64,000 nt of DNA from Octopus vulgaris (taxonomy: Eukaryota), in NCBI GenBank assembly GCA_951406725.2, contig OX597818.1, positions 99,572,001 through 99,636,000 of the forward strand, in the 5' to 3' direction. Position 1 is the first letter of the stretch. Each line of letters starts with the position of its first letter. This document shows, piece by piece, positions 11,181-52,083 of this stretch. Position numbers and translations under genes: made by a program. The notes under the pieces were generated by a model, which made no database searches, was not told the DNA's origin, and saw nothing but the letters and a program-made list of their open reading frames with translations.

Positions 11181-11435
11181 TTGTAGTATTACCTTTCTTT
11201 GCATAACAGACGGACAGAACAGCCAGACCGCAGTTAATCCAAACATGAAAACACGAAGAGAAAACACAACAACCCGAGGTCATGGAACAAGTATAATGTT
11301 ATTGGACGCTCAGGAAAGGAAAGAAAGAAGGAGGATTTAACATCTCGAGCGGAGCTCTTCGTCAGAAACATAGAAAAAGGAAAGATCCAAGGAAGGGAAG
11401 ACGGAGGAAAAAATTGCCAACGATACACACGCGAG
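11181..11435 (-). mobile_element. Short TA-associated element with a degenerate minimal hammerhead (11335-11369); same family as 19290-19478
   Basis: Minus strand: gttt-CTGACGA-a-gagc(tcc)gctc-GAGA-tgtt-aaat. Homologous to 19290-19478 ('gtatcgttggc', 'cctgagcgtc'). Confidence 0.7.
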
Positions 11436-12840
11436 ACATACAACTCAATGATGATTGAAAAATTGGACGTCTACAATTATGCTTAACATGTTTGTGTACT
11501 CTGAAACTGTGAAAAGTCCTCCATTACGGAAAATGTCTTTGGAACACCATTCTTCTTCACAACAATGCGTGTGATAAAGCGAAAAAAAAAAAAACAACAA
11601 AGAAACACTGAGCCTAAAATGGCGCTTTGCGTCATAGTTTATGCGTCGTAACGTTTCATCAGCTTTAGATACCGAATCCGTCATAGGCCACTATGAACCG
11701 CCGCTCTTATATTTAAACAACAAATATTACATTTCCTACATTTCCTAGTTGCCTCAGATGTTTTATTTATCACTTTCCCTCATAGTGTGATTATGTTCCA
11801 TTTCCTTTATATTGTAGTTCTTTTCTTACTACCTGGACCTTTGTTTCTCTACTTTTCTGACAACTCCGCATCACTCCTCTATTCTTTCTTTTTATTTTAT
11901 ACATCAATATTATCTCGTTTGGTAATTTTTTCACATCCCCGTTGATTTGCTGAAGACACTTCTCTTTCTTCGTTTCCCACTTCTCCATGTTGAATCGTTG
12001 CTTCTCTCGCTTTTGTTGTTGTTTTCTTCATCTGTTTTTTTAATATTTACTTCTTGGTATTTTTCTTTTTCTCTTCCACGTCCGCCTTCTTTCTAATTCC
12101 AGCCTCACCACTATCCCTAGCGTCATTAGAACCACCATCAATATTACGTTTACTCTACCAATTCACCTCCTATCCACCTTATACTTCACATCATCAATGG
12201 CACCGTCACCGCCGTCTTTGCCATCACCACCACTACCACCATCATCATCATCATCATCATCATCATCATCATCATCATCAGTTTCCTCTCTTCTTCACCA
12301 TCTTACAGTGACAAATGAATTGATGTATTAAAATGTTAGGCATTAACCCGGATCAAAGAGTATTATCTATGAAAGCAATATGGAGATATGTAGAGGCGGA
12401 GTTAAAATGACTAAGCGATGTGGAGAAAACGGCAGAGAGGAAAGGAAAGCGAGAGCAAGAACATGATAGATACATAGAGTAACAGAGAGAGAGAGAGAGA
12501 AAGACGACGAGAGGGTGTACATGAGAGAGAATCTGTACGAGAAAGGAAGAATAACATGGCTAGAAGATAGCTGCACGAGTGTTGCTCAGATTAAATCAAA
12601 CACCATCCACAGTTTAATCTGATATGTTACTGTCAGATTCCATTAAATGGTTATCCCTATTCAAACACCCGTATCTATCCATTCATATCTATGCATATGC
12701 ATGTTGGTTTATTTGCCAATCTATTTGCTGTCTGCCTGTCTAGTTATGTACGTATGTACGCACGTGTGTATGTACCAAATGTTTGCATGTATGTCGGAGT
12801 GTAAGTATGCATGTATGCACGTAATATTTGCATGTAAGTA

Positions 12841-13075
12841 AGGCAGGAAGTCGGTAGAATTGTTACAGCACGCCGGGCAAAATGCTTCGTGGTTTTCGTC
12901 TGTTTTTACGTTCTGAGTTCAAATTCTGCCTGGGTCGACTTTGCTTGTCATCATAACGGTGTCGATAAAAAATTTAAAAAATGAAAAGCGAAAAATAATT
13001 AAGCACTTGGATCGATGTAATCGACTGGCCTCCTTCTATGAAATGTCTGGCTTAGTGCCAAAATTCGAAATCAAT
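12841..13075 (+). mobile_element. SINE family B
   Basis: 'cgccgggcaaaatgctt...gttctgagttcaaattctgcc..gtcgactttgc'. Confidence 0.85.
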
Positions 13076-13956
13076 ATTTGCATGTATGTATCTAATATTT
13101 TCATGTTATGTAAGCATGTACGTATGTATTTTTAAATGTATAAACTTAATATTTGCATGTAGATGTGTATGTTCGATTATATGTATGTACATAGTGTCAG
13201 GATACTCATCTCAGTACAGCATGTGAATGATTAGATCGTCACCGACTATATCAGTAACCCCACCAAGTTTGCTTGTTGAGAAGAGTAATTTTTGAAAACA
13301 TGAGGGATTAATATCAACATCTGTCAAACTGGTGAATTCAGAAAACTCAACGTCTATTCAATAGTGTGTATTTATGCATGTACATATACATATATATGTA
13401 TATACAAATATGTGTATTTTTACAAGTGTTTGCAGATGCATATGGAATACGATTCTTTTAATAGATAGCTGCAGTGCTTGTTGCCCCTTTTGATTTGCGT
13501 TGCTAACAAAATGACTCTGAACATTCAGGAAATTTTCTTCGGAGTGTACAAGCATTTATCGATATAAAATCTAATGTGCTGATTTTTTTGTGTCTGGACT
13601 TTTTGAGGCGCATATTAAAAGTCGAACTTGTCAGCACCACAAACAGAGAGTAGACCTTGCTTTACGTTGGTCGGGGTATATGGCCTCTGCAAAAATGAAA
13701 TACCGACATTTCGATAGTTTCCATACCCGTTAGAGTGCAATGAAAGTATAGAAAAGGTACGAACAGTGGTGATCTTTCGATTGCTCGCGGGCCTGCATTC
13801 CTCGTTTAGATGCCATTAGTTTCATGTAGGTGGAGTTTAGGTCTTGGCAACAAAAAGAGAGAATAGCAGGTAAATTATACACACTAGTGAGTGAACAGCT
13901 GCCATGTTGGTATCAAATTTATTATATATCTTACAACATATGTCGGTTACTCAGAA

Positions 13957-14168
13957 GACGGCGAGTTGGCTGGATCGTTAGCATGCCGATAAAATGCTTA
14001 TCAACATTTCGTCCAACTTTACGTTCGGTTTTCGAATTCAACCGAGGTCAACTTTGCATTTTATTCTTTCAAGGTTGACAAAATGTGTACCAGTTGATCA
14101 CTGGTGTTGTGCAATCGACTGGATCCCTCCTTCAAGATTTCAGATCCTGAACCTACAGTAAGAAGGAT
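13957..14168 (+). mobile_element. SINE family B, degenerate
   Basis: 'ggcgagttggc..atcgttagcatgccg..aaatgctta...gaggtcaactttgc'. Confidence 0.75.
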
Positions 14169-49901: not shown

Positions 49902-49954
49902 AAGAGAGAAAAAGTTATGTACGTATGTATGTATGTATATATATATATACATAT

Positions 49955-50359
49955 AGCAAAATAAGATTCACGTCGGCGAACTCCAAGATCAAAAACGCCG
50001 TCTACCAATGCAAGGTTTACACGGACTCAGATGTCTTCACTTATGTAGGGGCCTCATCCTCAAGATTGTCTTTGCGTGTCTCCAACCATTACGCAACTTT
50101 TCGGGACATGAACAAGCGCCAGACCACGGGACTCAGTAAGCTAATATGGCGACTGAAGGATACGAACTTAAGCTACAGGCTGGAATGGTCAATTTTGTCG
50201 GTGGCCCTCCCATTTGATAGGGGCAGAAGGCAGTGCAACCTTTGTGTCTCCGAACTCTTCCATATTTTGTTTGCCAGAGGCCGGATGGTAAACGGGCTTT
50301 TACAGTCGGCTTTTCGATGCCCCCATTGGCGGCGTTACACTTATCTGGCTTTTAAATAG
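49955..50359 (+). CDS. 5'-truncated GIY-YIG endonuclease domain of a Penelope-like element
   Basis: AVYQCKV..TYVGASS..LSLRVSNH..F....TGLSKLIWRLK......WSIL........CNLC.SE....CPH; frame open to the stop at 50359. The track's Met start lies in the microsatellite. Confidence 0.85.
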   Translation, partial: SKIRFTSANSKIKNAVYQCKVYTDSDVFTYVGASSSRLSLRVSNHYATFRDMNKRQTTGLSKLIWRLKDTNLSYRLEWSILSVALPFDRGRRQCNLCVSELFHILFARGRMVNGLLQSAFRCPHWRRYTYLAFK

Positions 50360-51228
50360 CGTTTATAAATAATACCGGCACCCATAGCCCTTGGTAACAA
50401 ATTCTGAAATAGCCTTTAAGATATCTACGATTAACCACTGCAAGGGGAATTACTCCTGTAAGACAAACGGGGCTTGGTTTTTTCACAGCGGGGGGTTTCC
50501 TTGACAAGGCAGGCTTAGATGAACACACACACACAGAAAACATAATATATATATATTTTTTTCTGCCACCCAACGGTTCTCGCGGCAGTAGCCACTGACA
50601 GCCGAACGATCAAACGCACACACGTACACAAAAAATGTTTTCTACCCCTACGCCAACACACACATATATAGAACAGTATACACACACACACGTCTCTAAG
50701 TAGATTTTTTCTCGCCCCTTATAAAACATCCAATATTCCTTAAATAGTCAGAACTTTATTCTCGGTCACAAAGAACACCCACACACCCTCACCCACATGA
50801 TTGACCGATGCCTGACCCGTTAAATTCTTCAGCCACCGGTTCTCAACATACACTGATAAACAGTTTCGCCATGGGCTCTTAGGAGCATAGTTCGATTTGT
50901 TTTTGCTCCGCCTCTGTTCTGTTTTTGTTTTTCCAACGGATTTCCTATTTTCTTCCTGAAGAGAAAGACACAATATGGTCCCATTATTCAATCGGATTTT
51001 GGTAATTTGTGCCTTTCGAAACACGTGTAGAATGAAATAAAACGATTTCTGTTCAATCTGCGTTCAGCTCCATTTCTTCAATTCACCAATAATGTTTTAA
51101 TTTCAATTATCCGCACCAACGCACGGTTGCAACACCATATGGTTGTACCTCCAACCGTGCTGTTTACTGCTGTGATTTTTGCTACTAAGGTATCGGTTAA
51201 ACTTTTGATTAATCTACTACAAGATTAT
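50360..51228 (+). mobile_element. PLE 3' non-coding region/pLTR containing an HHR, ending at (TA)n
   Basis: Follows the GIY-YIG stop; HHR on the same strand. Confidence 0.7.
50949..51037 (+). ncRNA. Canonical type I hammerhead ribozyme
   Basis: tttcttc-CTGAAGA-gaaagacacaa...ttgtgcctttc-GAAA-c(acgt)g-TA|gaa(t)gaaa; predicted cleavage after 51029. Confidence 0.85.
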
Positions 51229-51459
51229 TCATCTTTCTATTTCACATAATATATATATACATACATATATATATATATATACATACATACACATATATAT
51301 ATATACATACATACATACATACATACATATATATATATATACATACATACATATATATATATATATATATACATATATATATATATATATATATATATAT
51401 ATATATATATATATATATACATATATATATATATACATATATATACATATATATATACA

Positions 51460-52083
51460 AAGCAATAAAGGGTTTAGCAACGAATTGCCTTACCACAGAC
51501 CGAATTTAGAAATAGCAGTCAAAGAGTTATAGCTATTTCTTCTACTAAAAAGGAGATCTCAGTAAAAAACACAGCAATTGGAAAGCAGACACAAACAGGT
51601 AAGAGAGAATGAATTGACGGCAATCTATCATACAATTTTAAGTTATCTACGGACGCACGTTTCGAAATCAAGTTTTTAGGAAAGCATAAGAATTAAATAT
51701 TAAATAATTCTACGTTACCCAAACTTCTTTTCTCTTCAGCGTAGAATACTATAATCATAAATGATTATATATTGAATTTTGAGATACTAGAGGGTACCAA
51801 CTCAACTCAGTATCAGAGCGAGCTAGAATCCGCAACTAGTATCACCAAATTCAAAGTGTGAATGAAAGGATTGTGTCACCAGCCCCTTCCCACCCGCGTG
51901 TAGCCAAAACAAGATGCTATGGTCATCTACTGAGATAAAATATGGTTATCCGTAATAATGAAGGGTGAAATTAATTAATTTGGAATAATTATCAATTACA
52001 CCAAGTAGTCTTCGGTATGTAAAAGCCTCATTCGAGGAAAATTTAAGTAATACTAAGCAATAAAGGGTTTAGCAACGAATTGC
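51460..52083 (-). mobile_element. 595-nt HHR-bearing monomer with a 29-nt terminal direct repeat (retrozyme-like)
   Basis: 'aagcaataaagggtttagcaacgaattgc' occurs at 51460-51488 and 52055-52083; (TA)n on both sides. Confidence 0.85.
51646..51745 (-). ncRNA. Canonical type I hammerhead ribozyme
   Basis: Minus strand: tctacg-CTGAAGA-gaaa.aagttt...aaactt.tttc-GAAA-c(gtgc)g-TC|cgtaga; perfect 6-bp stem I. Confidence 0.9.

Follow-up and report, generated by a model that had tools for sequence, protein, structure and literature searches.

In a 64,000-nucleotide stretch of the Octopus vulgaris genome (assembly GCA_951406725.2, contig OX597818.1, positions 99,572,001 to 99,636,000; called the window below), a preliminary description had named eight sites near (TA)n arrays as type I hammerhead ribozymes (HHRs) and had assigned them to unrelated non-coding elements. 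These eight sites fall in six mobile-element families: three coding Penelope-like elements (PLEs; families F1 to F3) and three non-coding families (F4 to F6). The window likely combines the ends of coding PLEs, two Hydra-type and one Neptune-type, with three non-coding families that were mobilised in trans into (TA)n by the reverse transcriptase (RT)/GIY-YIG protein of a PLE. The assignment to unrelated non-coding elements was wrong for four of the eight sites (41160, 50949, 19351, and 11335), which are 5'-truncated or solo ends of coding PLEs. The guild as a whole is made up of known kinds of element: truncated coding PLEs, and three retrozyme-like non-autonomous families that are new to the literature searched. 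New here are a quantified rule for how two end sites are paired upon insertion and a linker-less, TA-targeting PLE lineage.

The window contains 71 (TA)n arrays of eight or more repeats; its source genome comprises 2.8 Gb in about 30 chromosome-size contigs. For each repeat family, a first look gave 1,000 to 3,200 candidates, of which the best 40 were scored and 25 to 30 were fetched; these family samples are biased to long, young copies. For the end counts of F4 to F6, 18 loci were added from the match lists because they had multiple matches, and these were chosen independently of their ends. A separate blind sample consisted of 80 genome stretches of 10 kb each (800 kb).

HHRs were searched for with a descriptor of a type I ribozyme with a near-palindromic stem III, in a strict and a relaxed version, using dinucleotide-shuffled windows as controls. 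The strict descriptor matched the window four times (cores at 19354+, 41165+, 50956+, and 51739-) versus once in 20 shuffled windows; the relaxed descriptor matched nine times versus four times in 20 shuffled windows. The matches gained by relaxation were 22045+, 21537-, and 18810-, plus two that are probably spurious and lie inside the 485-bp unit of F5. Seven of the eight named sites pass a descriptor. The eighth, 11335-, is degenerate and was missed by both; it reads GAGA instead of GAAA, and ATGT instead of the ACGT first given for its stem III. Site 18775- passes the relaxed version (core 18810-), with the core C3 replaced by G in this copy. Stem III of 51739- reads ACGTGCGT and is near-palindromic; the positions first given on the minus strand mark the 3' end of stem I instead of the core.

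With CUGANGA / GAAA / NUH and stems I and II as the criterion for a core, the family cores are intact in 31/37 copies of F1, 31/31 of F2, and 49/50 of F4. The F6 core is mostly intact (20/32 copies; the copy at 18810- has G3). Of the F5 cores, present in the window at 22045+ and 21537-, 60/60 counted show U3 along with a C.A opposition at 10.1/11.1. In five short site scans, the Rfam model Hammerhead_1 was the top match in three (19.5, 21.2, and 14.8 bits, all below the gathering score of 34) and absent in two. No HHR was among the matches listed for the whole-window Rfam scan, where microsatellite microRNA models dominate. Stem III was computed to form self-duplexes of -3.5 to -12.3 kcal/mol and no monomer hairpin, so that the palindromes would pair in trans and not in cis, like those of minimal HHRs in PLEs. 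Taken as sequence motifs, the named sites are supported as PLE-type minimal hammerheads.

Site 50949 belongs to F2. The PLE GIY-YIG fragment that had been reported next to this HHR is real, and the two are parts of the same element, a 5'-truncated copy (49954..51255, plus strand) of a young 3,626-bp Hydra-type PLE. The copy contains the GIY-YIG endonuclease (EN) end of the open reading frame (ORF) at 49965..50359, with the stop at 50359, followed by the 3' untranslated region (UTR). The HHR core at 50956 lies about 600 bases past the stop; its predicted cut falls after 51029, and a 150-nt tail leads to the TA junction. Residues Y, G, R, H, CxxC, E, and N of the endonuclease are invariant in 59 aligned proteins. 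A Pfam search found nothing at the GIY-YIG part of F2, and the RT and EN domains of these PLEs were undetected by Pfam. AlphaFold gives a confident model of the F2 endonuclease (predicted local distance difference test score 88.5), for which GIY-YIG nucleases fill the first seven Foldseek rows, each at E>0.1; together with the motifs, these rows weakly suggest the GIY-YIG fold. The genomic unit of F2 is 3,626 bp long with an open 895-aa ORF for RT and C-terminal EN, and it forms head-to-tail tandems in the genome. A 630-aa open frame reaches the locus edge in 14/30 F2 loci, one of which starts in an inversion.

Clade labels for the PLE motifs were taken from PMC8557442, and Hydra and Neptune assignments were made by motif and not from an RT tree. 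F2 matches the Hydra clade in its C-terminal GIY-YIG, DKT, absence of CCHH, CxxC before E, and CxH after N; its RWK-like motif reads RIRW instead of RWK. Among 104 homologues at 28-42% identity, 92 carry DK[TS]. The CxCX5C linker, present in 72/75 EN-bearing homologues, is missing in F2, F1, and the family of locus L175, which have in its place a S/N-rich stretch between RT and EN and are 58% alike. N-rich inserts are known in rotifer PLEs (PMC3846280). Loci of the linker-less lineage were seen at L166:3510-6194 (-), L175, and L020. Because the linker is absent, we call F2 Hydra-type on its motifs, a linker-less variant and not a plain member of the clade. In Craig et al., the Hydra linker counts as evidence that linker and targeting are connected. 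All counted ends of F2 (28/28) and F1 (30/30) lie on (TA)n, and linker-less proteins with TA ends do not fit the proposal that targeting depends on the linker zinc finger.

F1 is a sister family of F2. Its copy in the window (41026..41455) is the 5'-truncated 3' end of a coding Hydra-type PLE at 41121-41455 (plus strand), joined to a 98-nt inverted arm at 41123-41026; the HHR core is at 41165 and the predicted cut after 41237. The EN coding part lies upstream in 6/30 F1 loci, and no full F1 ORF was seen among these 30 loci. A homologue-based search yielded five further Hydra-type families with open ORFs.

Sites 19351 and 11335 are ends of a Neptune-type PLE, F3. The first, F3a (19276..19477, plus strand), is a solo pseudo-long terminal repeat (pLTR) of about 200 bp from an old element, with the HHR core at 19354, an extra A before stem II, and an ACGT stem III. 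The second, F3b (11181..11429, minus strand), is a solo pLTR with a degenerate core at 11365 (GAGA at 11346) and a tail of about 50 nt ending on (TA)19; over 94 nt it is 77% alike to the pLTR of an intact Neptune unit. Longer F3 copies extend through a CA-rich UTR into decayed Neptune-type RT/EN, and F3 is 72-77% alike to the pLTR of an intact Neptune that forms tandems with a 6.17-kb unit. The ORFs of this parent carry DKG, YIDD, a CX4CxxC linker, and a CCHH-type EN ending in PxGLN, which we take to be a mark of the Neptune clade. F3 ends on (TA)n in 17/24 cases. Most copies are solo ends of about 215 bp; in the blind sample, 6/11 share one 5' start and none extends further 5', from which we infer short cDNAs made from a start site near the 5' end of the transcript. 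A Neptune tandem named C8 lacks an HHR end and was of no help. The intact Neptune-type family at L385:1-3100 has a CA-rich UTR of about 2.9 kb, a poly(T) run after the stop, two GC-rich islands, and many near-identical open ORFs.

The remaining four sites lie in non-coding tandem units with one HHR per unit. F4 (51455..52083, minus strand) consists of 1.06 units of 596 bp with TA on both sides, an HHR core at 51739, and a predicted cut after 51652. F5 (21241..22249) is a two-arm, head-to-head insertion of a unit of about 485 bp (minus arm 21738-21241, plus arm 21737-22249), with both ends on (TA)n and the U3-variant cores 21537- and 22045+. F6 (18607..18992, minus strand) consists of 0.98 unit of 351 bp and a 49-nt inverted arm; its core is at 18810 (G3), and the predicted cut is after 18780. 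Elsewhere in the genome the head-to-tail periods are 596 bp for F4, 482-486 bp for F5, and 351 bp for F6; the largest inserts hold 6.0, 3.5, and 2.6 units, and the longest stop-free stretches are 67, 101, and 52 aa, respectively. Copies are 98-99% alike in F4 and in F5, and about 93% alike in F6. Older F4 subfamilies, 76-91% alike, retain the core, both ends, and the two-arm form. The expectation of retrozyme-like non-coding families was therein confirmed for three families, and by their sequence anatomy F4 to F6 would fit non-LTR retrozymes or non-autonomous PLEs. Parts of the F4 unit occur in contigs from three presumed-RNA runs and from a further run without a label; these contigs are silent on level, strand, and circularity.

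One alternative is that autonomous PLEs left all eight sites as plain remnants of a pLTR or 3' UTR, so that distinct non-autonomous families would not exist. This holds for F1, F2, and F3, and the preliminary description had itself regarded such an outcome as fatal to its view; it applies at 41160, 50949, 19351, and 11335, and not to F4 to F6. The coding PLEs also show the same two ends, inversions, and tandems. However, F4 to F6 run head to tail with short exact periods, for up to 5.2 units per arm; the flanks of 25 loci per family share nothing outside the unit; and there is no ORF longer than 101 aa. For the sampled F4 to F6 loci the remnant explanation is refuted, and for the eight sites together we consider it very improbable.

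Unit coordinates of F4, F5, and F6 were counted from the predicted HHR cut. The 3' ends of all three families fall at two fixed unit sites: about u198 and u301 in F4 (42/45), u147 and u250 in F5 (51/52), and u174 and u228 in F6 (33/33). These ends touch (TA)4 or longer in 43/45 cases for F4, 52/52 for F5, and 11/33 for F6, compared to 2.2% of random positions; the TA targeting proposed at the outset is real, and every element at the named sites adjoins (TA)n. The 5' ends of F4 to F6 are scattered. Head-to-head two-arm inserts have one arm per end site at 12/13 (F4), 23/23 (F5), and 7/9 (F6) classifiable loci. Three further F4 two-arm loci, unclassified by the script, were read by hand as two mixed and one same-site, giving 14/16 overall. 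The motif GACTGCTATTTC lies 37-60 nt upstream of the first end in F4 and F5, and is shared by at least four further families with TA ends. In six or more families (window positions 21381, 22190, and 51509; loci L048, L066, L176, L180, L189, and L190), the TA junction is closely preceded by an RCTGCTATTTC motif with a hairpin, and this pair is a candidate RT recognition element.

Instead, PLE ends might have seeded minisatellites a single time, and these would then have grown locally into the tandem arrays by unequal crossing-over, with inverted arms arising from cDNA fold-back or DNA repair. Li et al. 2026 (10.64898/2026.07.22.740005) discuss a model of local amplification, PLE inversions of the head-to-head type have been ascribed to self-priming in an earlier proposal (PMC3846280), and one arm is nested in the other at 27/37 simple two-arm loci. 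Yet many chromosomes carry copies that are 98-99% identical and end on TA at the same two sites, unit numbers are non-integer, and the arms are paired strictly, one per site. At 10/37 loci neither arm is nested in the other, which is impossible for the fold-back of one cDNA; both target strands were therefore likely primed on RNA. The two arms of an insert share haplotype markers in 65/65 and 50/51 comparisons (chance 39 and 33; the markers are linked), as do tandem units in 98/98 and 24/25. One F5 locus, L347, has arms that differ from each other at four positions polymorphic elsewhere. This difference and the usual sharing of markers point to two RNA molecules per two-arm insert, usually of one variant. 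We regard the minisatellite explanation as likewise very improbable.

We return to mobilisation in trans by a PLE protein. The RNA template would be longer than one unit, being an uncut multimer or else a circle made by closing a monomer that dimeric hammerheads had cut. The PLE protein, probably as a dimer, would nick both strands of a TA array, and each nick would prime RT, which would begin at either of two internal sites separated by 54-150 nt. Both cDNAs would stop at random, and 5'-to-5' joining of the two would yield a head-to-head insert whose tail is on one arm only; in single-arm copies, one cDNA would be joined to the target. For a Poseidon PLE, predicted to be a dimer, in vitro work showed nicks in both strands of AT-rich DNA, RT initiation at two internal positions that bound the genomic tail, and insertion of uncut RNA when the HHR is mutated (PMC11167929). 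The fixed 3' ends of F4 to F6 are best interpreted as RT start sites of this kind.

Several results weigh against this account. F4, F5, and F6 share no sequence with seven Hydra-type families or with one intact Neptune family. Only 11/33 of the F6 3' ends lie on TA. The HHR regions fold as single strands no better than shuffled sequences do, and F5, among the youngest families, has a weak-looking core (U3, C.A). On the other side stands covariation of stems I to III, whose absence would have counted against the preliminary description: 5/15 pairs are double-changed and 93% of cells are paired across seven Hydra-type relatives, with a control that ignores relatedness and a count confined to these relatives. 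The HHR cut shows no excess of 5' ends (2/47 and 0/54, in a sample biased to long copies), and private variants fixed in all units of one locus are few (4 and 6 loci). Two candidate links to a coding partner were rejected: an F5-like match in L176 is a separate insert, and an F4-like stretch in the 3' UTR of a coding Hydra-type family (two loci, L189 and L190) was taken for an old passenger insertion with two arms. Circular-fold z-scores of -4 to -10 were set aside, as their control was a crude pair shuffle.

Of the 101 arms examined, 97 cross the HHR cut site, and 149/151 crossings are gap-free. Because arms cross the cut without scars and 5' ends are not enriched there, the template was a circle or an uncut multimer. 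A circular template has been proposed for PLEs (PMC4209133), and for F4 to F6 we give it about an even chance. Low divergence within loci and long arrays favour it: F4 units diverge by 0.19% within a locus versus 0.94% between loci, only 2/47 of the within-locus differences recur elsewhere, and inserts reach six units even though 5' truncation of an uncut multimer should shorten arrays each round. Cores and stems are also retained across subfamilies 76% alike, a point against hammerheads as vestigial passengers. Variant sharing as a discriminator looked strong on 22 F4 loci (0/38 recurring) and was weak on the larger set.

That uncut multimeric transcripts move, the hammerheads being weak or vestigial passengers from a PLE pLTR and circular RNA not being needed, has a nearly even chance in our estimate, and would alter only the first step set out above. 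The few private fixed variants and the weak cores favour it, as does the lack of 5' ends at the cut. Variant cores occur both in the young F5 and in F7, an abundant relative of F3; the departures from the HHR core are U3 lacking A8 in F5, and U6 in F7. In published work, a hammerhead with U3-A8 is active and A6C is slow (PMC3088659), minimal HHRs of PLEs cleave poorly in vitro (PMC4209133), 8/9 Xenopus dimers failed to cleave (bioRxiv 10.64898/2026.07.22.740005), and HHR mutants of the Anolis Poseidon PAc were still inserted in vitro (PMC11167929). A more specific version of the circle reading is doubtful: F4 and F5 might be a young lineage of ribozyme-bearing RNA circles that a dimeric Hydra-type PLE protein rolls, with its two subunits holding RNA at different start sites and priming one target strand each, and the linker-less F1 and F2 proteins might target (TA)n without the zinc finger proposed for this task. 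If true, it would explain tails, inversions, and more-than-unit copies by one mechanism.

Like the metazoan non-LTR retrozymes (Cervera and de la Pena 2020, PMC7229834; Li et al. 2026), F4 to F6 are non-coding tandem units of a few hundred bp with a GC content of 34-42%; they also share one type I HHR per unit and the co-occurrence of PLEs. Unlike these, they have minimal PLE-type cores with a palindromic stem III, form short dispersed arrays of 1-6 units in (TA)n that are mostly two-armed, and lack pLTR homology to a coding partner among seven Hydra-type and one intact Neptune-type families. Non-autonomous Chlamys PLEs such as MRC1 (PMC8557442) are likewise non-coding, multicopy, and head-to-tail, with PLE anatomy. 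As described there, the Chlamys elements resemble an autonomous family at the 3' end and mostly lack an HHR, whereas F4 to F6 have one and match no coding family found. In Poseidon PAc (PMC11167929), as presumably here, two internal RT start sites delimit an optional tail and the target is AT-rich; tails are 54-150 nt here versus 30-40 nt in PAc, and the two-arm inserts described here pair both sites almost strictly. A tail on one of two inverted pLTRs was already described qualitatively (PMC3846280, PMC8557442).

F2 resembles Hydra-clade PLEs, including Hydra-1_Obim (PMC8557442), in the C-terminal EN, DKT, RW-type motif, lack of CCHH, CxxC/CxH, HHR, and (TA)n target. Hydra-1_Obim retains the linker and is by eye a different family; the unit of F2 is 3.6 kb long, with a tail of about 150 nt. 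The F3 parent shares DKG, YIDD, the CX4CxxC linker, the CCHH-type EN, and a minimal HHR with an extra A with Neptune-clade PLEs, and differs in its very long CA-rich UTR (6.17-kb unit) and in occurring mostly as solo ends of about 215 bp with a fixed 5' start. We found no description of octopus retrozymes in the literature searched, Dfam and Repbase lying outside this comparison. The main texts of two metazoan retrozyme studies contain no cephalopods (PMC7229834; 10.64898/2026.07.22.740005, with no mollusc among 35 species). PMC13282606 reports 31 recently active Penelope-like families in an octopus, in a main text without the words "ribozyme" or "Hydra"; its repeat library may hold the families described here.

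The notion of a diverse HHR guild is supported beyond the window: the blind sample contains 25 motifs of diverse types, versus 0, 2, and 0 in shuffles, and 14/25 have (TA)5 within 400 nt downstream versus a background of 19%. By extrapolation from 800 kb, the genome would hold about 9 × 10^4 HHR motifs; the window is about four times richer than the blind-sample average. Inserts in the blind sample are 11 F3, 14 F7, two F4-like, three F5-like, and no F6. F7, with the core CUGU-N-GA, is thus very abundant (14 in 800 kb). In the window it is present as a pLTR-like piece with U at position 6 that the preliminary description overlooked (19020..19142, plus strand), a second copy ending on (TA)16 (33284..33457, plus strand), and a third, partial copy without a core (41693..41781, minus strand). 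Further HHR families with other palindromic stems III (CATG, CAATTG, CCAATTGG, and CGGACG), some of them two-armed, were seen at L066:1760-2560, L180:4950-5200, L238, L268, and L279. Apart from HHR elements, the window contains a 117-aa C-terminal fragment of a non-LTR element with the look of a restriction-like endonuclease (8798-9151, plus strand; Pfam weak), an RT fragment of another retroelement (17304-17822, plus strand; Pfam RVT_1, E 6e-8), and a 24-bp minisatellite of about eight copies (25757-25949).

The HHR guild points to a sizeable unannotated repeat class in this genome. How PLEs transpose and what their hammerheads do are standing questions, and this one genome offers a simple target together with intact ORFs of Hydra and Neptune type and non-coding units of 485-596 bp that are 99% identical. 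The linker-less, TA-ending PLEs are a natural test of the linker zinc-finger targeting idea, and the young F4 to F6 families suit testing how such elements insert. The rule of one arm per RT start site is a constraint that any insertion mechanism must explain.

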